IMG/VR virus record: IMGVR_UViG_3300033067_001904
Span: 1 to 58,857 of that record
Length of the DNA stretch: 58,857 bases
Direction: 5' to 3' (one strand)
From: a virus
Lineage: Duplodnaviria > Caudoviricetes
Below, one piece after another: positions 11,346 through 31,794 of this stretch. The notes under the pieces are model-generated. The model was not told the DNA's origin, searched no databases, and saw only the letters and a list, made by a program, of their open reading frames with translations. Position 1 is the first letter of the stretch. Each line of letters opens with the position of its first letter. The translations under genes and the position numbers were made by a program.

Positions 11346-11838
11346 CGCGCTCCCCGATCTTCAGGGTGAACGTGACCACCTGTTCGGTGCCGTCGTTGGC
11401 CGTTTGCTTGGCCTGCACCTGAGCATTCAGGCCGTCGTCGCGCCAGCCGTGTTGCTTGAGGATGAAGATCGCGGCGGTGTTCGCGGCCTTCATGTCCCGG
11501 GTCTGGGTGGCGTTCGAGTACAGGTTGTTCACCACCCGGGCCAGCATCTTCGACTTGCCGTGGGCGAGTTCGGCTTCGTAGTGCTTCCTCAGCGTCGGCT
11601 CAGAGATGCCCACCACGGCTGCGGCCTGTTCGTGGGTCATGTTGGCGAACATGCACAGGGCCACAAGCGATCGGGTTTGATCGGTGGGCACGTGTGCTGG
11701 CACCCCGCCCCTTTTTTTCAATGGGGAAAGATGGGGCGGAAGGGGTGCGATCGCACCGGCAGGGTTTGCGGGCTTCGCGGCTTTCTTCGCTGGGGCCTTG
11801 ATGGCTTTCGCGGGGGCTTTCTGTGGGGTGGCTTTCAT
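11335..11838 (-). CDS. terS: Terminase small subunit
   Basis: HTH segment ISEPTLRKHY..EL..G, AAIFILK..GW; overlaps terL start. Confidence 0.85.
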   Translation of the reverse strand: MKATPQKAPAKAIKAPAKKAAKPANPAGAIAPLPPHLSPLKKRGGVPAHVPTDQTRSLVALCMFANMTHEQAAAVVGISEPTLRKHYEAELAHGKSKMLARVVNNLYSNATQTRDMKAANTAAIFILKQHGWRDDGLNAQVQAKQTANDGTEQVVTFTLKIGERGEG

Positions 11839-11866
11839 AGGCTCTCATTATCGTGTTATCAGCCTA

Positions 11867-11910
11867 TTGACACTTTCTCATTTCGACGGTGTAATATCAC
11901 CACTGTGATA
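11867..11910 (+). promoter_or_regulatory. Sigma70 promoter with downstream 16-bp operator
   Basis: TTGACA (11867)-17 bp-TGTAAT (11890); operator TATCAC-CACT-GTGATA at 11895-11910. Confidence 0.8.
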
Positions 11911-11940
11911 CGGAATCACAGAGAAACAGGAGAAAACGCA

Positions 11941-12162
11941 ATGCAAACGAAAACGAACGAAACCCCGATGGCCCGGGCACTGAGCCGGGTCGAGAACCTT
12001 GTGACCGGCATGGGGTATGAGCGGATCAACCCCGAATCGCTCATGGCGCTGGGTGATGCCCTCGAGCGCGATGAGGAATGCGTGGAGTTCGAGATGAACG
12101 ACCACGGCGCTTACCGAATGGTGATGCGCGGCTTCCACGCCCTGTTCGCGGAGGCAGCATGA
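11941..12162 (+). CDS. Small acidic hypothetical protein, first gene of cassette 1
   Basis: GGAGAAAACGCA leader directly before MQTKTNETP. Confidence 0.8.
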   Translation: MQTKTNETPMARALSRVENLVTGMGYERINPESLMALGDALERDEECVEFEMNDHGAYRMVMRGFHALFAEAA

Positions 12163-12740
12163 ACTTCGCCGCCACCGACAAAGCGCTGGGCAAGCTGATC
12201 GAGACCCGCCCTTGGATCGCCAGCATCGACACCGATGAACCCGGCAACTGGATCGTGACCCTGCATGAGCCTTGGTGCTTCTACCTCGATCCCGGCTGCG
12301 GGGTGCGAGGGTTTGATTCCCTCTCTGAGGTGAAGAAGAGCACTACTGCGCTGGATGTGTACCAAAAGGTGCCTGCCGCTACTTTTGAGAAAGTAGAAGC
12401 GCACGAAGTGACACCGGCCCTCGAGGCTTTCATCCTCGGGATCGCCCGGGGCGTGGCCGATGCGAAGAAGGCCTTTGCGAAGAAGCGCGGGCGCAAGTCG
12501 ATGCTCACCCCGGTGCTGGAAGGCCTCGAGGCGGGCACCATCCTGCCCCTCGAGTTCGCATCCGAGTCGAACTACACCTACAACCGGCACGCCGACCGGC
12601 TGCACAAGCTGGCCTTGGAGGGCAACCTCGAGGCGCTCGAGGCCATCGAGATCAGCGGCGTGAACACCTATGCGAAGGCCCTGCGCGGGTACCGGGATGC
12701 CCTGATCAGCCACCTCCTGAAGAAGGCAGGTGCCGCATGA
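12159..12740 (+). CDS. Two-domain hypothetical protein; C-terminal helical domain resembles repeats of the 1398-aa effector
   Basis: Start MNFAATDK (ATGA overlap); C-terminus LALEGNLEALEAI..SGVNTYAKAL. Confidence 0.8.
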   Translation: MNFAATDKALGKLIETRPWIASIDTDEPGNWIVTLHEPWCFYLDPGCGVRGFDSLSEVKKSTTALDVYQKVPAATFEKVEAHEVTPALEAFILGIARGVADAKKAFAKKRGRKSMLTPVLEGLEAGTILPLEFASESNYTYNRHADRLHKLALEGNLEALEAIEISGVNTYAKALRGYRDALISHLLKKAGAA

Positions 12741-12913
12741 TCTACAAGGCCCCTCATTCAGATTCGCGCACGCTTTTCGAAGCGTGGTTCACGACCAGCC
12801 ACACATCGGCGTGCGTGGTGCGTACCCGCAAGGGCTACATCAGCGAAACCACCCGGGTGGCGTGGCGTGCATGGCAGGCGGCGACCGCCCAAGTGAAAGG
12901 CGGTGCCGCATGA
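12737..12913 (+). CDS. Hypothetical protein (FEAW...AW.AWQAA type)
   Basis: Read by hand: MIYKAPHSDSRTLFEAWF...VAWRAWQAA; ATGA overlaps on both sides. Confidence 0.7.
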   Translation: MIYKAPHSDSRTLFEAWFTTSHTSACVVRTRKGYISETTRVAWRAWQAATAQVKGGAA

Positions 12914-13101
12914 GCAACATGAGCTACTGCCGGTTCCAAAACACCCTGATCGCGCTGCGCGACTGCGGGGATGCCTTGGACGAGATCGATGGGAACCTTG
13001 CCGAACTGAGCAAGGATGAGGCTCGAGCCGCCGATCAACTGATCAGGCTCTGCACTCAGATTTCCATGTTTCACGACAACTCGATGGACGGTGCCGCATG
13101 A
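12910..13101 (+). CDS. Hypothetical protein (MSYCRFxNT type)
   Basis: MSNMSYCRFQNTL; coupled starts and stops. Confidence 0.75.
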   Translation: MSNMSYCRFQNTLIALRDCGDALDEIDGNLAELSKDEARAADQLIRLCTQISMFHDNSMDGAA

Positions 13102-13385
13102 CCGGGAAGCACACGCCCGGGCCGTGGACGGTCACCCGGGTATCGAAGTCCACGATCCTCAAGGACATTTACATCAGCGCAGGCAAAGAGCGGATCGCAC
13201 GTGTGTGCGTTCCCGCCACGGCTCAGAGCGTTGCCGAGTACGAAGCAAACGCACTCTTGCTGGCCCTTGCGCCGGAGATGTTCGCGATGCTGAAAGAAGC
13301 CACGCAGTTCGTTGAACACAACCTATGGCCGGAGCATGAGTTCGTGATGCGGCTCAAGGACACGATCTCCAAGGCTCAAAGCTAA
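13098..13385 (+). CDS. Hypothetical protein (KHTPGPW type)
   Basis: KHTPGPW...ANALLLALAPEM motif common in phage early genes. Confidence 0.8.
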   Translation: MTGKHTPGPWTVTRVSKSTILKDIYISAGKERIARVCVPATAQSVAEYEANALLLALAPEMFAMLKEATQFVEHNLWPEHEFVMRLKDTISKAQS

Positions 13386-13403
13386 TTTTCCGAAAGTAGA
13401 ACC

Positions 13404-13661
13404 ATGCAAGTTGATAACCGAAGCAAGCAAGCCCACCTCGCGATCGCGCTCTCCAAGATCGCCACGCAGTTGGGCGAAGAACTGAACCTGAACGGCGCGG
13501 AGACAATCGAGGCGACGGTGTACGCCCTCGCCATGACCTGCTGTGATTTCACCCAGCCGCAAGATCGAGGCTTGTGCATCACCGAGGCCTCGAAGCTGCT
13601 TCTCAGCTACGCCACCCCGGTCACGGTCGATTCGCCCGTGCAATCTCTCGCCACGCACTGA
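13404..13661 (+). CDS. Hypothetical protein
   Basis: ORF packed in the cassette. Confidence 0.6.
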   Translation: MQVDNRSKQAHLAIALSKIATQLGEELNLNGAETIEATVYALAMTCCDFTQPQDRGLCITEASKLLLSYATPVTVDSPVQSLATH

Positions 13662-13672
13662 AGGAGAACGTC

Positions 13673-13936
13673 ATGGCATCAATCTGGATTCAGCGGGCCG
13701 GAGAGGCCCAGCCCCTGAAGATGAAGGGGCACCTCGACACGGCGATCGCCAAGCGCCTGTTCGACCAGTACCTGATCTGGTGGGATCAGGACGAGAAGCA
13801 GAAGGCCGAGCGGGTGTTCAAGTACGAAGCGATCCTGAAGCGCAAGGGCAAAATCAAGGCGCTGATCTTCGTGGAGTTTCACTCGGTGCCCAGCGCGGAG
13901 GAACCCGGTCAACCCAAGCGAAAGGCCACCGCATGA
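13673..13936 (+). CDS. Hypothetical protein
   Basis: AAGGAG RBS before MASIWIQ. Confidence 0.7.
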   Translation: MASIWIQRAGEAQPLKMKGHLDTAIAKRLFDQYLIWWDQDEKQKAERVFKYEAILKRKGKIKALIFVEFHSVPSAEEPGQPKRKATA

Positions 13937-14112
13937 GCAAGGCGCAACAAGTGTTCGAGGCCATCATGCGGGCCAAGGGCCACACCGACTTCACCATGAA
14001 GAACGGCAAGTACACCAACCTGAACCTGTCTGTGCGCTGGAACTATTTCAGCCTCGGGTGGGAGATGCACGAAGTGACGAAACCAGTCAGAAACGCGAAA
14101 GGAACCGCATGA
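13933..14112 (+). CDS. Hypothetical protein
   Basis: MSKAQQVFEAIMRAKG; ATGA overlap. Confidence 0.7.
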   Translation: MSKAQQVFEAIMRAKGHTDFTMKNGKYTNLNLSVRWNYFSLGWEMHEVTKPVRNAKGTA

Positions 14113-14354
14113 ACATCACGATCTACACAAAGACCAACTGCCCCAACTGCATCGAGGCCAAGCGCCTGCTCGAGCGGTACAAGCTGCGTCACATTTCCAT
14201 CAGCCTCGATGATCCCGAGAAGCTGGCGGCGTTTGTTTTGGAGAACCCGGGCGTTCGGCAAATGCCCCAGATTTACTTCAACGATCAGCGCGTCGGGGGC
14301 CTTGCTGGCCTGAAGGCGGCGATGGTGCAGGCCAAGATCATGGAGGCTCCATGA
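14109..14354 (+). CDS. Glutaredoxin
   Basis: IYTKTNCPNC..AK.LL, RQMPQIY, RVGG. Confidence 0.9.
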   Translation: MNITIYTKTNCPNCIEAKRLLERYKLRHISISLDDPEKLAAFVLENPGVRQMPQIYFNDQRVGGLAGLKAAMVQAKIMEAP

Positions 14355-14806
14355 GGAAGCGCACCCGTCGCAAGGTCTGGGGCTTGCTGAATCCAGTGCA
14401 GCACGCGATCGAGGGCGCGGCCTACGTTCCCGAGGCACTGCTCGCTCCCCTGCGCCTGCGTGAACTGGCTGCGATCGAGTCCTTCCGCACCGGCAGCGCC
14501 GGGTTGCAGGAGTGGCACGACGTAAACGCCATGCACGGGCTATGCGAGACGATGGCGAAGGAAGGCATCGGCCCCGAGGCCCTCGAGGCCTGCGAGCGCT
14601 GTGAGCACCACCTCATCGAGGCGGCTCGTCGGTTCGAGCGCACCGGCAAGATGGGCACCACCGGCCCCGGGTTGCAGGCGTTCCGCGATGTGTTCGACTA
14701 CCACGACCTGCAACGGCAGAGCGTGGCCCGGGCCACCTACGATCAGATGATCCGGCTTACCACGGCGCGGATTCGGTCACGCGCCCCGGGCGTCACTGTC
14801 CTTTGA
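14351..14806 (+). CDS. Hypothetical phage protein
   Basis: GGAGG RBS; basic N-terminus MRKRTRRK. Confidence 0.75.
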   Translation: MRKRTRRKVWGLLNPVQHAIEGAAYVPEALLAPLRLRELAAIESFRTGSAGLQEWHDVNAMHGLCETMAKEGIGPEALEACERCEHHLIEAARRFERTGKMGTTGPGLQAFRDVFDYHDLQRQSVARATYDQMIRLTTARIRSRAPGVTVL

Positions 14807-16105
14807 GGCCTTGGCCTTCTTGGCCTTGGCTTGCTTCTTGTCCTGCTTGCCCTGCTCGTTGCCCACCAGCTTGCCCGGGGCACGCTCGCCCATGACCTCG
14901 GTGAAGGTGCGCCCGTCGGCCTCGAGGATCGCGTGCTGGCCGGTGAAGGCCTGCCAGCGCAGCACCCCCACATCGACGTAAGCTGGCTCGAGTTCGATGG
15001 CGTGGCACGTGCGGCCCGTCATTTCGCACGCAATGATCGTGGTGCCGGAGCCGGAGAACGGCTCATAGATGGCATGGCCGGGGCTTGAGTTGTTCTCGAT
15101 CGGGCGCTTCATGGCGTCGACCGGCTTCTGGGTGCCGTGGCCGGTGTCGCTCTTGGCGTGATCGATCTGCCACACGGTCGTCTGCGAGCGATCGCCCGCC
15201 CAATGCCCGGTTGCGCCGTCGCGCACCACGTACCATGCCGATTCGTGCTGCGGGTGATAGTGGCCCCGGGAGAGCACCATGCGGCTCTTGGCCCACACGA
15301 TCTGGGCGCGAATCTTGAACCCGGCTGCGATCAGGCTGTCGGCAACCGTGTGCGCGTGGATCATGCCGTGCCACACATAGGCCACATCCCCGGGGAACAG
15401 CGCCCACGCCTCACGCCAATCGGCCCGGTCGTCGTTCTGCACCTTGCCCTCGGCACGCTTTGCGCCGTCCTTGAGCGCCTTCGAGCGCCAATCCGGGTCG
15501 TACTCCACGCCATACGGGGGGTCGGTCACCATCAGGTGAGGCTTCACCCCGTTCAAGGCCTTGTTCACGGCATCCACGCTGGTTGAGTCGCCGCACACCA
15601 GCCGGTGACGGCCCAGCACCCACACATCGCCCGCCACGGCCACGGGAAAGTCCGGGGTGGGGGGCACATCATCGGGATCGGTGTTGCCGTCGGTGCCGAG
15701 CGGGGCAAGCAACTTGTCCAGTTCATCGACGGAAAAGCCGATGAGGCCGAGATCGAAGTTCGCCATGTTGAGATCGGCCAACTCGAGGCGAAGCAGGTTC
15801 ATGTCCCAGCCAGCGTTCTCGGCGAGCTTGTTGTCGGCGATCACCAGCGCACGGCGTTGCTCGGGCGTGAGGCCCTCGATCGTGATGGTGGGCACCTCGG
15901 CCAAGCCGAGCTTCTGAGCCGCCATGAGCCGCCCGTGGCCCGCAATGATCTCGCCCGCCTCGTCGCACAGGATCGGGTTCGTCCAGCCCCATTCCTTGAT
16001 CGCGGCGGCGATCTGGGCGATCTGAAGGTCGGAGTGGGTGCGCGAGTTCTGTGCGTAAGGCACAAGGGCGGCGACGGCCCGGTAGGTGACGGCGAGTTGT
16101 TGCAT
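14777..16105 (-). CDS. ParB-N domain fused to N4/N6 DNA methyltransferase
   Basis: NSRTHS..QI, IIAGHGR, IADNK (ParB-N); TDPPY, HGTQKPV, EPFSGSGTT (MTase). Confidence 0.92.
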   Translation of the reverse strand: MQQLAVTYRAVAALVPYAQNSRTHSDLQIAQIAAAIKEWGWTNPILCDEAGEIIAGHGRLMAAQKLGLAEVPTITIEGLTPEQRRALVIADNKLAENAGWDMNLLRLELADLNMANFDLGLIGFSVDELDKLLAPLGTDGNTDPDDVPPTPDFPVAVAGDVWVLGRHRLVCGDSTSVDAVNKALNGVKPHLMVTDPPYGVEYDPDWRSKALKDGAKRAEGKVQNDDRADWREAWALFPGDVAYVWHGMIHAHTVADSLIAAGFKIRAQIVWAKSRMVLSRGHYHPQHESAWYVVRDGATGHWAGDRSQTTVWQIDHAKSDTGHGTQKPVDAMKRPIENNSSPGHAIYEPFSGSGTTIIACEMTGRTCHAIELEPAYVDVGVLRWQAFTGQHAILEADGRTFTEVMGERAPGKLVGNEQGKQDKKQAKAKKAKASKDSDARGA

Positions 16106-16120
16106 GGCTTTCTCTGGGCG

Positions 16121-16143
16121 AAAAAAAAGCGCCACGTGGGCGC
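16121..16143 (-). terminator. Rho-independent terminator just upstream of the methylase
   Basis: GCGCC-CACGT-GGCGC followed by T8 on minus. Confidence 0.7.
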
Positions 16144-16260
16144 ATACGACTTGAACTGCCCCAAGGGGGGCCACCGAGCGGGGAGGTTTGGGAGAAAACG
16201 CATTGACGCCCGGTGGCCTAAGCGAAGCCGCAAGCCCGGAGAGGCAACGGATTCACCATG
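16121..16260 (-). ncRNA. Putative trans-acting antisense small RNA
   Basis: 12-bp stem (16169-16218, with a G-U pair possible only on minus) enclosing a 26-nt pyrimidine-rich loop, then a small hairpin and a terminator; candidate -10 TACGAT at 16266-16271; 5' end uncertain. Confidence 0.6.
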
Positions 16261-16354
16261 CCGTGATCGTATCGGCGAAAGCAGCGCCCGGGTGAACAAA
16301 TGCTCACGGGAATGATGAAAACCCGACTTTTTCCGTCTTTTTTGCTTTTTCCTC

Positions 16355-16382
16355 TTGCTGATTCTCACAACGGTGATACAGT
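16355..16382 (+). promoter_or_regulatory. Promoter of cassette 2 with operator in the spacer
   Basis: TTGCTG...TACAGT; TCTCAC-AACG-GTGATA at 16363-16378; T-rich UP-like tract upstream. Confidence 0.65.
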
Positions 16383-16448
16383 CAAGCCATCGAATCACTT
16401 TTCCAAAAGTAGTTTCGATCAACTTGATAACCAACCGGAGAAAACGCA

Positions 16449-17612
16449 ATGACCCACGTAATTGATCACACCAAGGGCCAGATGGTCGGTGCAGTGAGCG
16501 CCCAATGGGCCAGCCGCCCCGACGATCAGAAGTTCCTCAGCCTCAGCGAACTGCGCGGCAAGGTGGCCGAGTACGCCGCCCAAAGCCGCACGATCGATGT
16601 GCTGCCGCAGGAGATCGTCGCCAGCTACGACGCCGCCAACCCCTCGATCCTGCGAATCGGCATGGAGGGCTGCGCCGACCTCGAGCCAACCCATTGGGGG
16701 TTCGATCAGATCGCCCGGGTGGCCGGTGCCCCTGCCAGCTACCTGCGCGAATTGCCCGGGCCTCTGGCTGCGCTGAATCTGAACTACGGCCTGAAGGTGG
16801 CCGATGCCAAGCCGGTGCAGGCCTACGTTCGCGAGAACGGCTCCACCAGCCTGCGCGGCATCACCTCCACCAAGTACGGGCGAATCCTCGACCGCGATGT
16901 GGCCGACGCAGTGATCAACGTGGCAGGCAACGGCACGGGCGACACCCGCTGGAAGGTGCCCGGGGTGATCGAGTGGGGCAACAAGTTCGGCGTGAGCTAC
17001 AACCCCAACGTCGATATCACCCGCGAGAACACCACGCTCTACGCCAGCGACCGCGATCTGTTCATCTTCCTCGTTGACGACCTGAATCCGATCGAGGTGG
17101 GCAAGCTGGCGAACGGCCAACCCGACCTCATGTTCCGGGGCTTCTACGTGTGGAACTCGGAGGTGGGTTCGCGCACCTACGGCTTCGCCTCGATGTACCT
17201 GCGCGGCGTGTGCCAGAACCGCAACCTCTGGGGCGTGGAAGGCTTCAACGAGATCGTGTTCAAACACACCGCGATGGCCCCCGAGCGCTTCGAGGTGGAG
17301 GCCGAGCCTGCGCTGGTGGAGTTCGCAGGCGGTTCCACCGACAAGGTCGTGAAGGGCGTGGCCGCTGCCAAGAAGGCGATTGCAGCCAAGACCGACGAAG
17401 ATCGCCTCGAGTTCCTCGGCAAGCTGGGCTTCAGCCAGAAAGCGGCCAAGAACATCATCGACACCTCGATCGTGGAAGAGCAGAAAGCGCCCGAGAGCCT
17501 CTGGGACTTCGCCCAAGGCATCAGCGCCGCCGCTCGCAAGCTGGACTTCCAAGATCAGCGCCTGAAGATGGAAGCCATCGCCGGGGCCGTGTTGGACAAG
17601 GTGGCCGCATGA
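16449..17612 (+). CDS. DUF932-family protein
   Basis: QWASRPDD..F.SL, PTHWGF.Q, LYASDRD.FIFLVD, FRGFYVWNSEVGS, VCQNRNLWG. Confidence 0.8.
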   Translation: MTHVIDHTKGQMVGAVSAQWASRPDDQKFLSLSELRGKVAEYAAQSRTIDVLPQEIVASYDAANPSILRIGMEGCADLEPTHWGFDQIARVAGAPASYLRELPGPLAALNLNYGLKVADAKPVQAYVRENGSTSLRGITSTKYGRILDRDVADAVINVAGNGTGDTRWKVPGVIEWGNKFGVSYNPNVDITRENTTLYASDRDLFIFLVDDLNPIEVGKLANGQPDLMFRGFYVWNSEVGSRTYGFASMYLRGVCQNRNLWGVEGFNEIVFKHTAMAPERFEVEAEPALVEFAGGSTDKVVKGVAAAKKAIAAKTDEDRLEFLGKLGFSQKAAKNIIDTSIVEEQKAPESLWDFAQGISAAARKLDFQDQRLKMEAIAGAVLDKVAA

Positions 17613-17815
17613 AAGTGATCAAGGATGAAGTGGCGACGCTCAAGCGCCATCGCAGGGTGACGGTCGAACTGCTCCCCCATGAGGAACTGATCGCGATCGA
17701 TGACCGCCTGCACTACCAACTCGGCGATCCAATCGATGATGTAGTTCCCGGTCACATCGTGTCGAATGCGGTGCCCGTCATGTGGTGCCCGGTTGAACAG
17801 AGGTGGGTCGCATGA
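17609..17815 (+). CDS. Hypothetical protein
   Basis: MKVIKDE; ATGA overlaps. Confidence 0.7.
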   Translation: MKVIKDEVATLKRHRRVTVELLPHEELIAIDDRLHYQLGDPIDDVVPGHIVSNAVPVMWCPVEQRWVA

Positions 17816-18198
17816 GCTTTCGAGTCCCCAACAAGTACCGGGTTCGCGAAGGCCGCATGGCGAGCGACGAATCCTTCGGCAACAACGGAGCCTTCGTGGT
17901 GCCCCTGAAGTACGGCCAACAAGTGTTCGTGATTGCGAGCGACGCCTTCGGGTGGGAGCACGTGAGCGTGAGCCGCAAGGATCGCTGCCCCCTGTGGGAT
18001 GAGATGTGCCAGATCAAAGACATGTTCTGGGATGCCGAGGATTGTGTGGTGCAGTTCCACCCGCCTGCCAGCGAGTACGTGAACAACCACCCACGGTGCC
18101 TGCACCTGTGGCGGCAGATCGGCACCGAGTTCGCGCTGCCCGATAGCCTTCTGGTGGGCATCAAGGGCGCGATCGCAGGCATGAGGGAGGCAGCATGA
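17812..18198 (+). CDS. Conserved phage protein (WEHVSVS...PxWxEMC type)
   Basis: GWEHVSVS..RCPLWDEMCQIKDMFW, YVNNHPRCLHLW. Confidence 0.8.
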   Translation: MSFRVPNKYRVREGRMASDESFGNNGAFVVPLKYGQQVFVIASDAFGWEHVSVSRKDRCPLWDEMCQIKDMFWDAEDCVVQFHPPASEYVNNHPRCLHLWRQIGTEFALPDSLLVGIKGAIAGMREAA

Positions 18199-18374
18199 GC
18201 AAGTGGCCCGACGGCACTCGCAAGAGCACCGACAACGCCTTCAACTGGCGTGATCGCGGCCCGAGCATGTTCGCCAAGCCAACGCAAAGCGACAAGGTTT
18301 CGCAAGGCATGGCTCAGGCCGTGGCGCAAGGCAAGACGATCGGCAAGGCCATCACCATTCGAAAGAAGAAGTGA
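18195..18374 (+). CDS. Small basic hypothetical protein
   Basis: Read by hand: MSKWPDGTRKSTDNAFNW...; GGAGG RBS. Confidence 0.65.
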   Translation: MSKWPDGTRKSTDNAFNWRDRGPSMFAKPTQSDKVSQGMAQAVAQGKTIGKAITIRKKK

Positions 18375-18730
18375 AGCAGTACCCGACACCGGTCTTCAAT
18401 GACGATATCGAGCGAGCCGAGCAAGAGGCCAAGCGACGCGCTGAAGAGCGCGAGCGCAAGCGCCAGCAAGTGCGTGCCGACTTCCCAACGGTGACCGCCG
18501 AAGCCGACTACTGGAACTCTCTCTTTCCCGGCACGAAGATCGTGTGGGCCATCGAGGGAGACAAGGAAATCGGCCCGGTGCCGCCCGCAGAGCGCGAGGC
18601 CTTCAAGGCCCGCCAACAACAAGCGCAGGAACCTGCGCCAGCGCCCGCCCCACGGGTGCAGCCATCGGCCTATGAGCGTGCTCAGGCCGAGATGAACAAA
18701 CTCAAACAAGCCAAGCGCACCAAGCGCTGA
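18371..18730 (+). CDS. Hypothetical protein
   Basis: GTGA overlap with the upstream gene. Confidence 0.7.
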   Translation: MKQYPTPVFNDDIERAEQEAKRRAEERERKRQQVRADFPTVTAEADYWNSLFPGTKIVWAIEGDKEIGPVPPAEREAFKARQQQAQEPAPAPAPRVQPSAYERAQAEMNKLKQAKRTKR

Positions 18731-18741
18731 AGGAGAAAAAC

Positions 18742-19092
18742 ATGTGGATTTGCCTTACTGATAGCTTTCTGTCGATCGTTCACAAGGACTGCGCCGAGGA
18801 CGAATTGCTCGTTCGCGCACGCCGCCGTGGCGATATCGAGCGAGTGTTCCCTCACGCCAAGGTCGTGGTGAACCGCAACACCGACTACATGTTCCGCGCT
18901 CGAGTGAAGCGCACCGATGTGGCCGACGCCTTGATGATCCAAGCCGCGACGATCGACTACCCCAACTTCAAGAACGAGGTGGAGGACGACGGCCTGCACA
19001 ACGCTTACGCTTCGGTCTGGGGCATCATGTACCGACTTCAGAACGTGATCACCGGCAATCGCCGATCGCCCGCGATGCGCGATCTCTACTGA
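18742..19092 (+). CDS. Conserved hypothetical protein
   Basis: AAGGAG RBS; MWIC...FLSIV...LLVRAR...DY.FR...IDYPNFK. Confidence 0.8.
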   Translation: MWICLTDSFLSIVHKDCAEDELLVRARRRGDIERVFPHAKVVVNRNTDYMFRARVKRTDVADALMIQAATIDYPNFKNEVEDDGLHNAYASVWGIMYRLQNVITGNRRSPAMRDLY

Positions 19093-19121
19093 AGCACCCG
19101 CCCGCCACGGCGGGCACCAAG

Positions 19122-19156
19122 AAAGCAGGCTCTCCCCATGAGCCTGCTTTTTTTTC
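19122..19156. terminator. Terminator (probably bidirectional) between cassette 2 and the helicase
   Basis: AAAGCAGGCTC-loop-GAGCCTGCTTT followed by a T run. Confidence 0.85.
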
Positions 19157-19159
19157 GCC

Positions 19160-20623
19160 TCAGTCTTTCCCGGCCACCAGCGGCTCGAAGCGTCGAGCTT
19201 CAAAGTGGAAGCGAGCAAGGAACTCGCCGGGGACGCCGATCTCATCGTGGTAGCGGCTCTTCGCCACCTTGATCAGCGTGAGGTTGTCGCTCTCACGGTG
19301 AACCACCACCCCGAGATCGGCCTTGTTGTACCAGTGAGCCGAATCGGAAATGTCGTACAAGGTGGGCACACGGTAGTTGCCCTTCTCATCCTTCTGGGGC
19401 TTGGCCGGGTGAGCCACAACGATCAGGTGAATCATGAGCTTTCGAGCGAAGCGCTTGAGCGTCTTGATGGCGCGGCCCACGTATTCGGTGAGGCTCTCGC
19501 CTTGGCCCTTGTTGTGATCCATCTCGTTCCACGGGTCGATCACTACCACCTTGCAACCGTGCTGAATCACGGCGGCTTCCATGCGATCGAGCACCCAATC
19601 GAGGCTCACATCGTCGTCTTCGCTGGGCACCATGAACGTGAAGTGCTGGTCGATCCAGCGATCAGCCGCCTTCAGTTCATCGACGGTGCAATGCTGGACG
19701 GGCCTGCCGCACTTCCATGTCCGCAGGTTGCGCTTGTGATCGCGCTGGGGTGATTGCTCGAACGACGCGAAGGCCACGTTCAGGCCGTGGTACTCCACCA
19801 GTCGGCAGCACACATCGTTCACCAGCGAGGACTTGCCGTGCGAGGGAATGCCCGTCCACACGGCCATGTCGCCCAGCCGGGCCTTGTAGTGATCGCGAAA
19901 CACCGGCATCCCAATGTCGTAGATCGGGGCGTGCGCCACGGGAGGCAACTCGCTCATGCGGTAGATGCCATCGACCTTCATCCATGCGGCCCGCTCGAGC
20001 GTCTTCTTCACGCCCGCCTGCCCGTAATGGTGAAGCACCTCGTTCAAGTCCTTCAGGCGCTTTGAGCCATCGGGGTGCATGGGGTAGGTGAGGAACTTGC
20101 ACCGGTACTTGCCCAGCCGGATGCTCAGGTCGTGAAGCAGGTTAGCGCCCGCATCGTCGCCATCGACGGCGAGGATGATCTCGGGCACCCGGTCGACCGC
20201 GAAAAGGCCCTTGGCCCCGTCGAGGAAGCTGTACTTCACCGAGTTCTCATCCACGATGATCTCGGCGGGTGCCCCGTCCGGCACGCTCACGGTACGGGTG
20301 AAGCCGCACTGAATCGCGGTGAGGGCGTCGATCTCGCCCTCGGTGATGATCAGCGGCGTGCCGAAGAGGGATTCATCCCGAAGAATGTCCTCGTTCCACA
20401 CGCACTTGATGCCGCCCTTGTCCTGCCAGAACTTCTTCTCGGCCCCAAGGGTGCGGAACTTGCGATTGACCACCTTCCCTTCGCGAAAGAAGGGGATGAC
20501 CAGCGCGTCGTTACCAGAACCGTTTCGGAGGGCGTGCAGGCCCTTTTCCGAAGCCAGTTCCCTGTCGATTCCCCGCTCTTCCAGCTTTGAAGCCAGCGCT
20601 TCCGTGAGTTGTGTTGTTTCCAT
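19160..20623 (-). CDS. Twinkle/T7 gp4-like TOPRIM primase + DnaB-like helicase lacking the Zn domain
   Basis: ITEGEIDAL, SVPDGA, AVDGDDAG, KDLNE; Walker A TGIPSHGKS; VIDPWN; VAHP; GGAGGT RBS. Confidence 0.92.
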   Translation of the reverse strand: METTQLTEALASKLEERGIDRELASEKGLHALRNGSGNDALVIPFFREGKVVNRKFRTLGAEKKFWQDKGGIKCVWNEDILRDESLFGTPLIITEGEIDALTAIQCGFTRTVSVPDGAPAEIIVDENSVKYSFLDGAKGLFAVDRVPEIILAVDGDDAGANLLHDLSIRLGKYRCKFLTYPMHPDGSKRLKDLNEVLHHYGQAGVKKTLERAAWMKVDGIYRMSELPPVAHAPIYDIGMPVFRDHYKARLGDMAVWTGIPSHGKSSLVNDVCCRLVEYHGLNVAFASFEQSPQRDHKRNLRTWKCGRPVQHCTVDELKAADRWIDQHFTFMVPSEDDDVSLDWVLDRMEAAVIQHGCKVVVIDPWNEMDHNKGQGESLTEYVGRAIKTLKRFARKLMIHLIVVAHPAKPQKDEKGNYRVPTLYDISDSAHWYNKADLGVVVHRESDNLTLIKVAKSRYHDEIGVPGEFLARFHFEARRFEPLVAGKD

Positions 20624-20852
20624 TCCCAAAACCTCCATGCCAGCCGCAATGAAGGCAGTTCCAAACCCCTTCCCCAGCTTCCAAAATTCCCGATGTAATC
20701 CTTGTGGGGCCAACGGCCACCGAAAGGCACTTCTTTCGTCGGTTCAAGCCCTTGCGCGAATCGCTGCACTGAGGGCACAAGCCGTAGTGATTGCCCGGGG
20801 TGAGCGGCACATCGATGCCGAGTTCCCGAAAGCGCGTCGTGAGATCGGCCAT
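20511..20852 (-). CDS. Stand-alone primase zinc-binding domain
   Basis: CPQCS..RK...KCLSV...VWNCLHCGWHG. Confidence 0.8.
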   Translation of the reverse strand: MADLTTRFRELGIDVPLTPGNHYGLCPQCSDSRKGLNRRKKCLSVAVGPTRITSGILEAGEGVWNCLHCGWHGGFGNGNNTTHGSAGFKAGRAGNRQGTGFGKGPARPPKRFW

Positions 20853-21673
20853 CACCCACCCCCCGCTGCCATCGGCAGGTATGAGGGGTTGTTCTCGAGC
20901 ATGTAGCGCTCGGTCGCGGTGAGGGGCCGTCCGTTCCACATGCCCGAGGCAAGCGCCTGTTGCCGGGGGTCGGAGGGTGTGGTGGGCACATCGGCCCAGC
21001 GGCCTTGGTTGAGCCACGTGGTCGGGTGGGCGATGTACTGAGGGTCTTTCCCAACGCACGCCTTGGCGAAGGCCTGAGCGGCCTCGGCGAGCGCTTCGGT
21101 GGGGTGAGGGTGCTCCACCAGCTTCACGGCCCGCTCGAAGGCCTTGGCGGCGGCGAGCTTGCCCTCCTTCCGGGGGTAAGCTGCCCAGAACACCTCGAAG
21201 CCCTTCGGCAGCTTTGCACCGGGCTTCTTCGAACTCACCTTCGATCGTCCATCCGAAGGTGGGCGATCGGGCAAGTCTTTCTCTTCTGTATCTGTATCTG
21301 TATCTGTATCTGGGGCGTTACTTTGCCGTTGCTGTAACGTTACATCGGCGTTTCCGGTGTCCCTTTTCTTGGCGCGATGCCTTGCAACCCGCGCCGCGCT
21401 TGAGTCCGAGGCAAACTGCCGCTTGTCCCAATTCGCCAGATTCCAATGCTGGTCGATGAACCCGCGAGCGATGAAGAGGGCCTTCATTTCGGCCAACTGT
21501 TCATCGGTGATGCGGAGGTAGAACGCGATCTCTGTTTCTTGTAACGTTTCAAGAACGTTACTGCAACGAAGGCACATGAGCATGATGTAGCGGCGCTGCA
21601 TCGTCTCGGAGAGCATCTGTACCTTCGGGTCATGCGCGAACTCGGCGTAGAGCCGGAACCAAGGGTTTGCCAT
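20852..21673 (-). CDS. Replication initiator (O/DnaD-like)
   Basis: WFRLYAEF..DPKV, NWDKRQF.SD.S..RV..HR, FE.FW.AYPRK.GK, HPTTWLNQ.RW.D. Confidence 0.85.
   Translation of the reverse strand: MANPWFRLYAEFAHDPKVQMLSETMQRRYIMLMCLRCSNVLETLQETEIAFYLRITDEQLAEMKALFIARGFIDQHWNLANWDKRQFASDSSAARVARHRAKKRDTGNADVTLQQRQSNAPDTDTDTDTEEKDLPDRPPSDGRSKVSSKKPGAKLPKGFEVFWAAYPRKEGKLAAAKAFERAVKLVEHPHPTEALAEAAQAFAKACVGKDPQYIAHPTTWLNQGRWADVPTTPSDPRQQALASGMWNGRPLTATERYMLENNPSYLPMAAGGG
21287..21311 (+). repeat. (TGTATC)n hexamer tandem encoding DTDTDTDT
   Basis: About four tandem copies seen directly. Confidence 0.9.
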
Positions 21674-21753
21674 CAAGCGGCCCCCCTTGGCGGCTTGTGC
21701 CGCGAAAGCATGGAATGAGAACTGGCTCGATAAGCCAGTGGATGTGATTGCAT
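21673..21753 (-). CDS. Putative 26-aa leader peptide coupled to the replication initiator
   Basis: GGGAGGTT RBS; MQSHPLAYRASSHSMLSRHKPPRGAA; TGATG overlap with the initiator start. Confidence 0.5.
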   Translation of the reverse strand: MQSHPLAYRASSHSMLSRHKPPRGAA

Positions 21754-21780
21754 AGCAACCTCCCAAGCCTCCACAAGGGG

Positions 21781-21844
21781 TTCACCGGGCAGGCGGGAGG
21801 TTCGCTCTTCGGCGGGGGGATCAATCCCCGCCTAGCCCGGTGAA
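21781..21844 (-). promoter_or_regulatory. Structured RNA leader upstream of the replication operon
   Basis: 17-bp inverted repeat TTCACCGGGC(T)AGGCGGG with one bulge; contains AACCTCCC, complementary to the downstream RBS. Confidence 0.6.
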
Positions 21845-22027
21845 ACTGTTCGCTTGCTGCATGGGACGCAACAAGCGCTTACTCTTTCTGGGGATGCTCA
21901 CGTATCATGGCCGCGATACTTTCCAGTATCGCCAGCGGCGTGATCGGTGTCATGCCCGAGGTGCGGACTGTATCACCGGAATGAGAATGGCGACCACTTT
22001 CATGGGCAGAAAGTGGGGTGATCTGCG

Positions 22028-22375
22028 TCAGAACACCTCTTTCAATGAGATGCCGTGCAAGGCCAGCATCAACTTCTTCTTGAGCCGATACACATCGGTG
22101 ATGGTGGGTTTGCTCTTCACATCCTCCACCACGACCTCACCGGAAGCGACAAGCCGGTACCTGAAGTCGGCGACGTAGGTCGCCAATTTCACACCGTTCA
22201 GCGTGAGCGGGTAGCGGGGCTGGCACTCCAACTCCACGATCTCGCCGATGCGCTGAAGCAGCTTCAATTCAGCGTATCTCGATGCTTCTCGCTTGCTGGC
22301 GAAGTTCATCCCGTCGAGCGAGACCCGTTTGTTTCCAAACTTTGACTTCGAGGTGGCGGCGGCGTGAAACATCAT
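22028..22375 (-). CDS. DUF1064-family PD-(D/E)XK nuclease-like protein
   Basis: KFGNKRV..DG..FASKREA.RY.EL, YVADF.Y, VVEDVK, YRLKKKL. Confidence 0.85.
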   Translation of the reverse strand: MMFHAAATSKSKFGNKRVSLDGMNFASKREASRYAELKLLQRIGEIVELECQPRYPLTLNGVKLATYVADFRYRLVASGEVVVEDVKSKPTITDVYRLKKKLMLALHGISLKEVF

Positions 22376-22457
22376 TAGCGTGCAACCGAGATGTGAGTGT
22401 TTTGTGGTGGCGGAGCGTCGGAGAAATAACCACTGTATTGTCACAGGGAATGAGAGC

Positions 22458-23075
22458 ATGGCAACTTCCAAGGACACGGCCAAGGTTGCGGCCTTCAAGC
22501 ACTTCATGGAGGTGCGTGGGCTGAAACCGCATCCGTGGGCGCAGGCCGCAGGCCTTCGCAGTAGCACGATCTACAACTTCCTCTCGGGGAAATCTCTGAG
22601 CCTCTCGAGCGACACGCTCGAGCGCCTCGCCAAAGCGGCAGGGGCTTCGGTGGACGAGATTCTCTCGGGGGAGAAGACCAACCACAGAAACGATGCCCCT
22701 GTCCTTGTTCCGTACACGGTGGGGGTGTACGGGAGGCTTTTTTCGATGGATCGGCCCATGCAAGTGCAGCGCCCTGCGGGGGTGCCTGCGGAAGTGGAAG
22801 TCGTTGCCGCTCGCATCGATGGTGATGGCCTGCATCCGGTACCGGATGGGTGGCTGGTGTACTTCGAAGCCGAGCCTCGAGACCCCGAGGCGCTGATCGG
22901 CAAGTTGTGCGTGGTGCAGGTGGCCGGGGGCCAGCGCCTGATTCGGGAGATTCGCAGGGGCCAGAACCCGGGCCTCTACACGCTGCTTTCGTGGACGGCC
23001 AGCCCAATGGAGCAGGCCCAAGTGCAAGCCGCGCACCTGATCATCTCGATCGCACAGATCACGATTCCAGCTTGA
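22458..23075 (+). CDS. CI-like repressor (XRE HTH plus S24-like C-terminal domain)
   Basis: WAQAAGLRSSTIYNFLSG..SLS..TLERLA; C-terminal beta domain with GDGLHP and LIGKLCVV. Confidence 0.8.
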   Translation: MATSKDTAKVAAFKHFMEVRGLKPHPWAQAAGLRSSTIYNFLSGKSLSLSSDTLERLAKAAGASVDEILSGEKTNHRNDAPVLVPYTVGVYGRLFSMDRPMQVQRPAGVPAEVEVVAARIDGDGLHPVPDGWLVYFEAEPRDPEALIGKLCVVQVAGGQRLIREIRRGQNPGLYTLLSWTASPMEQAQVQAAHLIISIAQITIPA

Positions 23076-23125
23076 AACGGTGATAATTTAGACGGAGAAA
23101 GTATCACCGAAAGAACAAAAAGCGC

Positions 23126-23153
23126 TTGGAGGGTATCACCACGATGATATAGT
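23126..23153 (+). promoter_or_regulatory. Promoter/operator of the recombination operon
   Basis: TTGGAG...TATAGT with TATCAC-CACG-ATGATA at 23134-23149. Confidence 0.65.
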
Positions 23154-23188
23154 GGCTCCTGTCAATACTGACATGGAGAAAACGCATC

Positions 23189-24193
23189 GTGGCAAGCATC
23201 CCAATTCAAAACGAGGCCGAATGGCACTCAGTTCGTGAGCGATTCATCGGCGGCTCTGAAGTCGCCGCGCTCTTCTACCGTTGGCAACTGCCCGACGGTT
23301 CCGAAGTAATCCGGCACATGTACGACGCCCCGCCCGGGGCGATGGTGCTGGAATGCCTCAGCCCGTATTCCACGGGCATGGCTCTCTACAACGCCAAAGC
23401 TGGCATCGTCATGCCCGAGGATTTTTCCTCGGAGCGCATCGACGCTGGCACCTTCCTCGAGCCTGCGCTCGCCCAATGGGCCACGAAGAAGTGGGCCATG
23501 AAGCTGCGGAAGGTGCGCCGCTACACCGCACACGAAGAGATCGATGGGTGGGGCGCGAGCCTCGACTATGAGGTTCACGGCGACGGCGAGTCCGGCACGC
23601 CCGTGGAGTTCAAGAACGTTGACTGGTTGATCTTTCAGCGCGAGTGGGTGTCCGAGGGCGAGGAAATCATCACGCCCCCGATCCACATCAACATCCAACT
23701 GCAACACCAGATCGGCGCGGTCGAGGCCGACCACGGCTGGATCGTGGCGTGCGTGGGTGGCAACGAACTCAAGCGCGGTCGCATCGAGCGGCACGAACCC
23801 ACACAGGAAAAGATCGCCGAGGCGATCGAGGCCTTCTGGGTCAACGTGCGGGCCGGTATCCCCCCGGTAGCCGTGGCCGACTACAAAGCCGTGGCGAAGG
23901 CCTATGCCGAGGGCGACAAGGCCCTCGTTGCCGATCTCACCGGCATGGATGCCCTGCCGGTTCTGCTTTCTCGCTACCTGCGCTGGAAGAAGCACTTCGA
24001 GCGACTCGAAACCGCCTTCGAAACCATGAAGGGCCAGATCGCGCTCTCGATGGGGGAGGCCTCCAAGGCCAACGCCCCGGGCTACCGCATCTCATGGCCG
24101 GTGATCAATCGCAAGGAGCGGCAGGTGGAAGCCTACGTCGTCAAGGCACTCACCTATCGCGGCGCATTGACCATCACCCGGGAGAAAGCATGA
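23189..24193 (+). CDS. YqaJ-like viral recombination exonuclease
   Basis: W...R..FIGGSEVAA, G..LEP, ASLD, EFK, QLQHQ. Confidence 0.9.
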   Translation: MASIPIQNEAEWHSVRERFIGGSEVAALFYRWQLPDGSEVIRHMYDAPPGAMVLECLSPYSTGMALYNAKAGIVMPEDFSSERIDAGTFLEPALAQWATKKWAMKLRKVRRYTAHEEIDGWGASLDYEVHGDGESGTPVEFKNVDWLIFQREWVSEGEEIITPPIHINIQLQHQIGAVEADHGWIVACVGGNELKRGRIERHEPTQEKIAEAIEAFWVNVRAGIPPVAVADYKAVAKAYAEGDKALVADLTGMDALPVLLSRYLRWKKHFERLETAFETMKGQIALSMGEASKANAPGYRISWPVINRKERQVEAYVVKALTYRGALTITREKA

Positions 24194-25041
24194 CCGAGAC
24201 AGCAACTCAAACCACCACCGCAGAAGCCACCACCGTTCAACCCGGATTCGCCGCGCAGGAAGCCACCATGTCGCCGCTCGCACCCGTCGCTGAAGCCCCG
24301 AAGAAAGCCGCCCTCACCACGGGTGGCTTCGCCAAGGCCATCGTGCCCCAGAACATCGAAGAAGCGTTTCGCCTCGCCAAGGTGATCGCGATGGCGAAGT
24401 GGGCACCGAAGTCCTACCTGATCGATGTGAAGCGTGCAGACCTCGGCTTCGACGAGAACAAGATTCTGCTCGGCATCATGCACGGCCTCGAGGTGGGCCT
24501 CACCCCGATCGCGGCTCTGCAATCGATCGCGGTGATCAACGGCACGCCTTCAATCTGGGGCGACGGCGCTCTCGCCATCGTGCAGGCCTCGGGGATGCTC
24601 GAGGATTTCAAGGAACTGCCGCTCTTCGATGAAAAGCAGCGGATCACGGGCTACCAGTGCGCGGCCAAGCGCAAGGGCGTGCCCACCCCGTTCATCTCGC
24701 AGTTCACGTTGGACGACGCCGCCAAAGCCGACTTGCTCGGCAAAAGCGGCCCGTGGCAGCAATACCGAACCCGAATGCTTCAGATGCGTGCCCGTGCGTG
24801 GACGCTGCGAGCCGGGTTCGCCGACGTTTTGCGCGGCCTCAGCATCGCCGAGGAAGCGCAAGACACCCCCGTGGAGGCAACACCGGCAGCGAAGGTGTCG
24901 CCGCTGAAGCGAGCGCCCAGCGCCCGCTCGGCTCTCGATGCGTTCGCCACCGATGCGCCTCCCGCAACCCCCGACGCGAAAGCCGAAGGAACCACCGCAG
25001 GAGAGACCACCGATGGCAACCAAGCCTCAGCCCAAGGGTGA
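24190..25041 (+). CDS. recT: RecT-like single-strand annealing protein
   Basis: GLEVGLTP..ALQSIAVING.PSIWGD, GPWQQY..RMLQMRAR...LR..FADVL.GL. Confidence 0.85.
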   Translation: MTETATQTTTAEATTVQPGFAAQEATMSPLAPVAEAPKKAALTTGGFAKAIVPQNIEEAFRLAKVIAMAKWAPKSYLIDVKRADLGFDENKILLGIMHGLEVGLTPIAALQSIAVINGTPSIWGDGALAIVQASGMLEDFKELPLFDEKQRITGYQCAAKRKGVPTPFISQFTLDDAAKADLLGKSGPWQQYRTRMLQMRARAWTLRAGFADVLRGLSIAEEAQDTPVEATPAAKVSPLKRAPSARSALDAFATDAPPATPDAKAEGTTAGETTDGNQASAQG

Positions 25042-28864: not shown

Positions 28865-28968
28865 GATTTCGGGCCGAAAGCGGATGCTGGCCTCTGGGGG
28901 AACCCGGGGGAGCGCACCAGACGCAGCGAGTAGGCCCACCCAATACCAACACAACCGGAGAAGACACC

Positions 28969-31430: not shown

Positions 31431-31794
31431 CGGCACACACTCGCACAGTTTTGACCGGGCCAAAACCCCGGGCCGAAGGTAAGTTGTTGAACCCCAATGG
31501 GGTTTGGTGCTCAAGAAACCGTTGAACTACCCCGCCAACGGTCTTGAAATCCTTCCGGCAGTATCATCACCGTGAGAGTGCCCCGGTGGAGTGGCCGAGC
31601 GGTTTAAGGCAGCGCTCTTGAAAAGCGCCGAAGTTTCAACGACTTCCGTGGGTTCGAATCCCACCTCCACCGCCATCACCGAAAGCGCAATCTGCGTCGC
31701 GAGCGCATCATCACTCGCACAAACCCTCGCACAGAAGGCCCTGTCGGGGGTTTTTTCATGGGCATCCATACAGGCTCGCACACTGTGCGGCACA
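31431..31794. repeat. attP-like region with arm-type direct repeats flanking the tRNA
   Basis: CTCGCACA at 31440, 31714, 31726, 31775; CGGCACA at 31431, 31788. Confidence 0.65.
31585..31675 (+). tRNA. tRNA-Ser(TGA)
   Basis: Acceptor GGTGGAG/CTCCACC, G discriminator plus CCA; anticodon stem GCGCT/AGCGC with loop CTTGAAA; long variable arm; GGTTCGAATCC. Confidence 0.95.

Follow-up and report, generated by a model that had tools for sequence, protein, structure and literature searches.

A candidate small RNA of an uncultured freshwater phage with a loop complementary to the leaders of its own early operons

The window, by which we mean the whole 58.9-kb virus record analyzed here (58,857 nt; G+C 61%), carries on its minus strand a candidate RNA of about 139 nt. 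This RNA lies between a gene for a ParB-N / N6_N4 DNA methylase, directly downstream of it, and a divergent plus-strand operon that opens with a DUF932-like gene (Table 1). Four elements make up the RNA from its 5′ end: a first hairpin (HP1), a seed hairpin (HP2), a small hairpin, and an intrinsic terminator. HP2 had been described in the original prediction as a 12-bp stem whose one non-Watson–Crick position is G-U on the minus strand and A-C on the plus strand, closed by a 26-nt loop, and this description holds. The minus strand reads GGCCACCGGGCG / UCAAUGCGUUUUCUCCCAAACCUCCC / CGCUCGGUGGCC, with UCAAUGCGUUUUCUCCCAAACCUCCC as the loop (in plus-strand coordinates: stem 16169-16180, loop 16181-16206, stem 16207-16218), and RNAfold retains the stem on both strands, adding a weak helix of 4-5 bp inside the loop. 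The short hairpin and T8 terminator placed 3′ of this stem are likewise present, the former as a CCC/GGG hairpin at 16160-16168, between HP2 and the terminator, and the latter as GCGCC-CACGU-GGCGC plus U8 (16143-16121), the sole terminator-like site in 16000-16500, on the minus strand. Folding stability by itself does not stand out (minus strand z = -1.82, plus strand z = -1.45): 7 of 200 shuffles fold as well as the minus strand, which is ordinary for such a G+C content.

Table 1. Features of the candidate RNA, its neighboring gene, and its proposed targets in the window
Feature	Position	Strand	Remarks
Candidate RNA, about 139 nt	16121..16259	-	5′ hairpin, seed hairpin, small hairpin, terminator; putative 5′ end
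Putative -10 hexamer TACGAT	16266..16271	-	Within or at the TTCGCCGATACGAT block, which lies immediately 5′ of HP1 and is conserved in window and L001
5′ hairpin HP1	16221..16257	-	14 pairs; window compared with L001
Seed hairpin HP2	16169..16218	-	12-bp stem with one G-U, 26-nt loop
Seed A, UGCGUUUUCUCC	16191..16202	-	Exact complement of four plus-strand operon leaders
Seed B, CUCCCAAACCUCC	16182..16194	-	Complementary to replication-gene leaders; tentative
Intrinsic terminator	16121..16143	-	5-bp GC stem and U8; ends 15 nt before the methylase ATG
ParB-N / N6_N4 DNA methylase gene	14777..16105	-	Directly downstream of the RNA; PF01555, 5.3e-18
Target leader 1	11929..11940	+	73-aa first gene, start 11941; operator TCACCACTGTGA 21 nt upstream
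Target leader 2	16437..16448	+	DUF932-like gene 16449-17612, divergent from the RNA gene
Target leader 3	23175..23186	+	YqaJ exonuclease (GTG at 23189), then RecT, one operon
Target leader 4	57986..57997	+	46-aa first gene, start 57998; operator TCACCACGGTGA upstream
Primase-helicase RBS (tentative target)	20624..20636	-	12 pairs and a 1-nt bulge with seed B
Replication-initiator operon leader (tentative target)	21760..21772	-	12/13 with seed B

A strict promoter scan returned no promoter at the 5′ side of the RNA, the TACGAT block included, and the 5′ end is therefore one that we infer. Two operator-like words were observed between the divergent promoters, at 16304-16315 and 16365-16376. One of them, TCACAACGGTGA, is exact and sits in the DUF932 promoter spacer; the other, TCACGGGAATGA, is a one-off variant upstream of the putative promoter of the RNA and is partly kept in L001, the nearest relative of the window (DUF932 protein 95% identical; full record G005). 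A candidate operator downstream of the -10 hexamer in the window is not kept in L001, and in some relatives the promoter spacer of the RNA contains an operator-like word. On the other side of the element, the methylase also matches PF02195 (5e-05, below the cut-off of that family), and its expression could only come about by read-through of the terminator. The starts of the ParB-N/methylase genes, at 16105 in the window and in relatives, mostly have a weak SD or none and lie directly behind the terminator, an arrangement that suggests deliberately low, read-through-dependent expression of the enzyme.

What sets the seed hairpin apart is the repetition of its loop sequence elsewhere in the genome. 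The word GGAGAAAACGCA, the exact complement of seed A, occurs five times in a count over the whole window (11929, 16191, 16437, 23175, and 57986), every time on the plus strand, compared with 0.45 copies expected by chance; none of 100 shuffles reaches five. Four of these copies were predicted to precede the first start codon of a plus-strand operon, and all four do so exactly, the 3′ end of the word falling 0-1 nt ahead of the codon. The four leaders are identical across the 12 loop-matching nucleotides alone, their flanking sequences being unlike. Exact TCAC-N4-GTGA operator words lie shortly upstream of the leaders at 11929, 16437, and 57986, in A+T-rich promoter regions, and by eye a similar word precedes the leader at 23175. 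The wider statement that all plus-strand operons bear the tag applies to these four and not to a fifth plus-strand unit, the repressor gene (22458-23075), which is free of GGAGAAAACGCA. Pairing had further been proposed to run across the AUG with one mismatch at three leaders. In the window it does: past an A-A mismatch, three more pairs can form at 16437 and at 57986, and two at 11929. This extension is not kept in L001, because the loop of L001 differs on its 5′ side.

The fifth copy of the word, at 16191, is the plus-strand face of the loop itself, and could in principle be nothing but the RBS of a translated ORF, as a TTG at 16203 opens a frame of 30 codons. We regard this reading, which the original prediction had itself raised, as having almost no likelihood. 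L001 reads GCAGGGATC at this place and has no start codon there, so no conserved TTG ORF exists for which the plus-strand copy could serve as RBS, and the reading is largely refuted. Moreover, no promoter or terminator is present on the plus strand, the region is antisense to the methylase leader, and the G-U pairs favor the minus strand.

A neighboring, overlapping segment of the loop, seed B, had been predicted to pair with replication genes as well. The sequences are as claimed: the helicase RBS GGAGGUUUUGGGA (20636-20624, minus strand) pairs with UCCCAAACCUCC around one bulge, and GGGAGGUU is present at 21764-21757, with a longer 12/13 match, GGAGGCUUGGGAG, at 21772-21760. In G005 the helicase site keeps all of its pairs with a different base bulged, and the replication leader has two mismatches. 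The matches in the window thus stand, and as single sites that are only partly kept in a 95% relative, both remain tentative targets. Two further RNAs were predicted in the window. An int-alpA RNA (RF02996; 37.1 bits versus a gathering score of 35.8) lies at 21768-21842 on the minus strand, before the replication-initiator operon; the ACCUCCC in its loop resembles seed B. On the plus strand, at 31585-31675, the phage encodes a tRNA-Ser (anticodon TGA) whose variable arm is long.

Energy-based target prediction does not distinguish the leaders in this G-rich genome. A duplex scan of the whole window did not single out the leaders, several G-rich coding sites scoring equally well or better (for example, -30.1 at one coding site versus -22.6 to -26.4 at the leaders). 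Cofold gains for six targets overlapped those for nine controls (-5.1 to -17.6 versus -3.8 to -14.6), and the YqaJ leader stayed unpaired to the loop in the cofold MFE. Such unspecific energy scans would be natural if there were no trans pairing at all, and the loop were a generic C/U-rich anti-SD stretch within a G+C-rich structured 5′ UTR, its longer matches arising by chance, from shared strong SD words, or from a relic copy of a leader. Comparison between phages bears on this explanation.

Relatives were gathered through the DUF932 protein, which gave 26 loci on viral contigs, 32 on metagenome contigs, and one in species genomes, the last a short MAG contig of the L003 lineage. A collection of named phages held only distant DUF932 relatives (at most 46% identity). 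A search based on the methylase instead returned 46 loci, with the element in the L001 contig alone; the enzyme family is widespread in other contexts. Fifteen lineages with the divergent arrangement were kept after removal of near-duplicates (L001, close to the window; L006, L007, L100, L122, and L127, close to L003), of identical loci (L013, identical to L012; L121, to L002; L124, to L025), and of loci with no divergent gene or too little upstream sequence. For each pairing, cognate or not, a swap test compared the 20-nt DUF932 leader with the 170 nt lying ahead of the divergent gene, the score being the length of their longest exact complement. Cognate scores were 12, 8, 8, 11, 8, 9, 11, 8, 8, 4, 7, 7, 9, 11, and 12 (mean 8.87), compared with a mean of 6.09 over the 210 non-cognate pairs. 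Matches of at least 9 nt were found in 7/15 cognate and 8/210 non-cognate pairs, the latter being 9-11 nt long. None of 200,000 permutations reaches the observed cognate sum. An earlier version of the test on 12 lineages gave 0/100,000 by length and 4/100,000 by duplex energy.

Loop/leader covariation, which the original prediction had put forward as a check, is therefore borne out: complementarity is higher within a lineage than between lineages. The leader words themselves illustrate the point, being GGAGAAAACGCA in the window, AGGAGAAGCAG in L009, GGAGAAAGCCA in L004, GGAGAAAGC in L123, GGAGAGAAC in L008, GCCAAGAGGAG in L125, and ACCACGGAGCCA in L137. In each related phage an individual leader word goes with a matching loop, so the pair appears to co-evolve as a private code. 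In most lineages the anti-leader stretch falls within a predicted hairpin loop. The SD is always inside the matched stretch in the lineages compared, and the stretch extends to the spacer side of the SD in the window, L009, and L004, and to its upstream side in L125 and L137.

These comparisons also weigh on the generic anti-SD explanation, which we consider improbable. It draws on the 8/15 lineages in which the cognate match is 4-8 nt, little above a generic anti-SD, and on a sub-threshold likeness of the element to CCUCCC-type sRNAs; L012, for instance, has a best cognate match of 4 nt and no cognate copy in its 12.6-kb fragment. Five lineages, on the other hand, have matches of 11-12 nt that extend past the SD, and the permutation result leaves chance little room. 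Controls with reversed leaders (mean 6.5) and same-sense leaders (mean 5.5) stay at background. Nor is the loop simply the complement of the nearest start site: the start of the methylase gene itself pairs with it by at most 8 bp including one G-U in the window (by eye), and that of L001 does not pair with it. Overall, the covariation strongly supports a minus-strand RNA that would pair with dispersed plus-strand operon leaders. Such a co-evolving match across an uncultured phage clade is the strongest evidence of pairing obtainable short of experiment.

Longer records allow the same question to be put for several operons at once. In G001 (the 60.8-kb record of L009), AGGAGAAGCAG or a one-letter variant stands ahead of the ATG of four genes, one of them downstream of an operator-like palindrome, tatcaccgtggtgaca, with a half-site looser than TCAC-N4-GTGA. 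G002 (the record of L004) has GGAGAAAGC(C/A) at four start sites. In G003 (the record of L008) the RNA region holds two C/U-rich stretches, one matching GGAGAGAG after three operators and the other matching GGAGAGAAC at two starts. Counted together, start-site matches of at least 10 nt to the loop number 13 in 7 cognate cells and 5 in 42 non-cognate cells. In G004, G006, and G007 the match is no better than that of a strong generic SD, so the multi-target claim fails there. Searching for first genes from the operators succeeded in the window and G005 and not in lineages with other operator words, and a count over all six-frame start codons set against the whole 170-nt region was too noisy for use. 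The prediction of a trans-acting RNA with several targets thus gains support for its pairing, by covariation over 15 lineages and by tagging in three more lineages, with repression as its predicted consequence.

Some neighbors of these leaders deserve mention in their own right. Type II hammerhead ribozymes were detected in the plus-strand operon of L137 (1128-1190, plus strand; 49.9 bits) and L025 (2922-2984, plus strand; 46.4 bits), above the gathering score of 37. Both stop some 10-17 nt short of the DUF932 start codon; they adjoin the leader word ACCACGGAGCC, which is matched by the RNA loop, or overlap it. Given this placement, self-cleavage would free a message beginning at the tagged leader. 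In G005, a fifth start site at about 50239 has GGAGAAGACGCA and could pair with the loop through one G-U; its counterpart in the window, at 28957, reads GGAGAAGACACC.

Conservation of the element points to the minus strand as the one that would be transcribed. Alignment at the level of sequence was possible for the window and L001 alone, seeds elsewhere differing by design, and there hardly any position differs between about 16260 and 16121, in contrast to the diverging sequence just upstream. Within HP1, 4/14 pairs are changed on both sides between the two phages, three are changed on one side via G-U, and none is broken. Each sequence has four G-U pairs in this hairpin, which would be A-C on the plus strand. 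Over the consensus of the two (42 pairs, 2 sequences) 10 cells are G-U and none is A-C, a pattern compatible with a minus-strand RNA alone. Comparing L002 with L003, another close pair, gave two compensatory and three one-sided changes with none broken (46 pairs). In a custom scan, 7/16 loci have a hairpin with a U-run at a distance of 20-48 nt ahead of the minus-strand gene; on the plus strand, three weak matches turned up, at other places. The hairpin and U-run of L008 have a longer loop and were missed by the terminator scan. Terminators and compensatory or G-U-only stem changes together uphold the strand originally proposed.

About half of the lineages have no evident terminator, and there the element may be a 5′ UTR only. 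This touches on a different account of the same pairing, in which abundant early-operon leaders would bind the loop in the methylase leader rather than the reverse, tuning how the methylase message is terminated, stabilized, or translated and making the loop a sensor of early transcription. The element always sits directly upstream of a gene—methylase mostly, an HNH-like gene in L137—and is a 5′ UTR where the terminator is missing; the methylase, as noted, starts with a weak SD or none. For all that, we hold such a sensor to be unlikely. In the window, the seed hairpin and terminator form independent helices that no alternative fold joins. The downstream gene is replaceable, L137 retaining a 12-nt seed/leader match ahead of its HNH-like gene, and cover over an SD and start codon is the classic geometry of repression. 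As for L137 itself, the gene past the hairpin on the minus strand is HNH/NUMOD-like (MPPEEWRPIPG...) in place of the ParB-methylase, and is possibly a homing-endonuclease insertion.

A further possibility is that the 12-mer acts as double-stranded DNA, a site repeated at five places, bound by a phage protein with which it co-evolves. All five copies are in one orientation, and DNA sites too would differ between lineages and agree within a genome. For the start-associated sequences (SAS) of Cluster K mycobacteriophages, the available text leaves “RNA or protein” open (PMC3203893). Yet the word always contains the SD and abuts the start codon, its matched stretch slides relative to the SD from one lineage to the next, and the stem around the fifth copy always stays paired while its sequence varies between lineages. 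Since a separate operator word already exists in the phage as well, we judge a DNA site to be highly improbable.

The reading that we consider likely is that of a minus-strand RNA of about 139 nt whose loop pairs with early leaders and blocks their translation. Among the listed sequencing runs that contain the stretch, none is recorded as RNA; contigs of four runs aligned to 11800-24300 cover the region, and the differences among those listed fall elsewhere than in the loop and leaders. Transcription would start from a promoter near 16265-16290, divergent from the DUF932 operon, and most transcripts would end at U8 (16121), just short of the methylase gene; on this scheme the RNA would be at once a stand-alone sRNA and the leader of the methylase message. 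The second hairpin would keep the C/U-rich 26-nt loop open, and UGCGUUUUCUCC would pair with the SD and spacer (GGAGAAAACGCA) of the first gene in each of the four repressor-controlled plus-strand operons. Pairing over the SD and spacer would block 30S binding, and loss of first-cistron translation would probably lower the whole operon by polarity. The neighboring loop segment may act likewise at the two replication-gene leaders. In essence, the loop is a mirror image of the phage's own early-operon leaders, so one small RNA probably dampens the early operons, both in this uncultured phage from freshwater and in some dozen relatives, as far as sequence comparison can tell. That the repressor gene is untagged fits a role, predicted in its timing (early-to-late switch or lysogeny) as in its outcome, in repressing or switching off the early lytic genes. 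If true, this would be an RNA counterpart to a repressor-operator network. The question of pairing is directly testable by reporters and lineage swaps.

A more ambitious reading, which we offer as conceivable but rather doubtful, is that two parallel networks govern the same early operons: a repressor with its DNA operator in every promoter, and an RNA “operator,” the private word of SD plus spacer, at the first starts, read by one sRNA. As the seed/leader word differs between lineages, it would act as an RNA-level specificity of immunity or exclusion, comparable to that of c4 in P1 and P7 but extending over the genome, leaving the lineages mutually orthogonal. As the RNA would be the attenuated leader of a self-protecting methylase, early shut-off and DNA methylation would be coupled. 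Were this so, the lineages would constitute a natural set of mutually orthogonal riboregulator pairs.

Comparison with known systems begins with Rfam, which includes a C4 model. No gathering-score match for the RNA was found by an Rfam scan of the whole window, C4 included; for C4 there was no match at E <=10 in 15900-16500 and none at E <=1 in the loci of 12 relatives. The nearest families fall well below threshold: mmgR/suhB (RF00519) with 13.8 bits in the window and 28.1 bits in L015 versus a gathering score of 41, and anti-hemB (RF02837) with 15.0 bits (E = 0.81) versus 49.5. In both, as in the element, a UUUCCUCCC-like stretch is single-stranded and precedes a terminator hairpin whose U tail is long. 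They differ in being chromosomal sRNAs of proteobacteria that act on host mRNAs, rather than phage RNAs matched to phage leaders.

The c4 RNA had been named as the conceptual precedent, and its mechanism is the nearest one known. Encoded at the front of an operon, it is freed from a precursor by processing and acts further down the same transcript. The candidate RNA departs from this plan in ending at an intrinsic terminator rather than a processing site, and in its proposed targets in trans, which are the first genes of at least four further operons. What the two would share is a loop complementary to the RBS region of phage mRNA, here 12 nt exactly at four leaders. The likeness therefore extends to the complement of RBS leaders, and not to an Rfam C4 match or to downstream targets. 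In the available text on c4 of P1/P7 (immI), this structured phage RNA pairs through its loops around an RBS and blocks translation, and differences in its specificity between related phages bring about heteroimmunity (PMC12197685).

On the target side the nearest published description is that of the SAS of Cluster K mycobacteriophages, a likeness in kind and not in sequence. As set out in the available text, SAS is a 13-bp asymmetric word that includes the SD, lies 3-7 bp ahead of the start codon in some of the non-structural genes, and is conserved beyond its pairing with 16S; its function is given there as unknown and its binder as “RNA or protein,” and the K1 phages have a single copy on the other strand (PMC3203893). 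The phage described here similarly has a private, asymmetric, SD-containing word near the starts of a gene subset. The consensus GGGATAGGAGCCC itself has one 2-mismatch match in the window, in a coding region, and 77/100 shuffles do as well. The host group differs too, with 4-6 tagged genes here compared with 11-19 there (PMC3203893). Here a co-varying hairpin partner has been identified, and the available text describes no partner RNA for SAS.

More broadly, the element has the single-stranded seed co-varying with targets that marks trans-acting sRNAs and, in the window, a U-tailed terminator together with a promoter that is putative. A functional analogue is provided by RegA and RegB of phage T4, where one phage factor acts on the ribosome-binding regions of many early mRNAs; RegA is a translational repressor protein and RegB an endonuclease that cuts at GGAG, whereas the agent proposed here is an RNA. 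The literature search found no paper describing the element. To our knowledge, the phage antisense RNAs known so far—c4, sar, OOP, and P4 CI—each act on one neighboring message, and the novelty here lies in a single RNA that matches several operons, dispersed over the genome, each at its first start site. If its predicted action is true, it would offer synthetic translation control a natural, orthogonal series of seeds and leaders, and would give a mechanistic answer to what private “start-associated” words are for in phage genomes.
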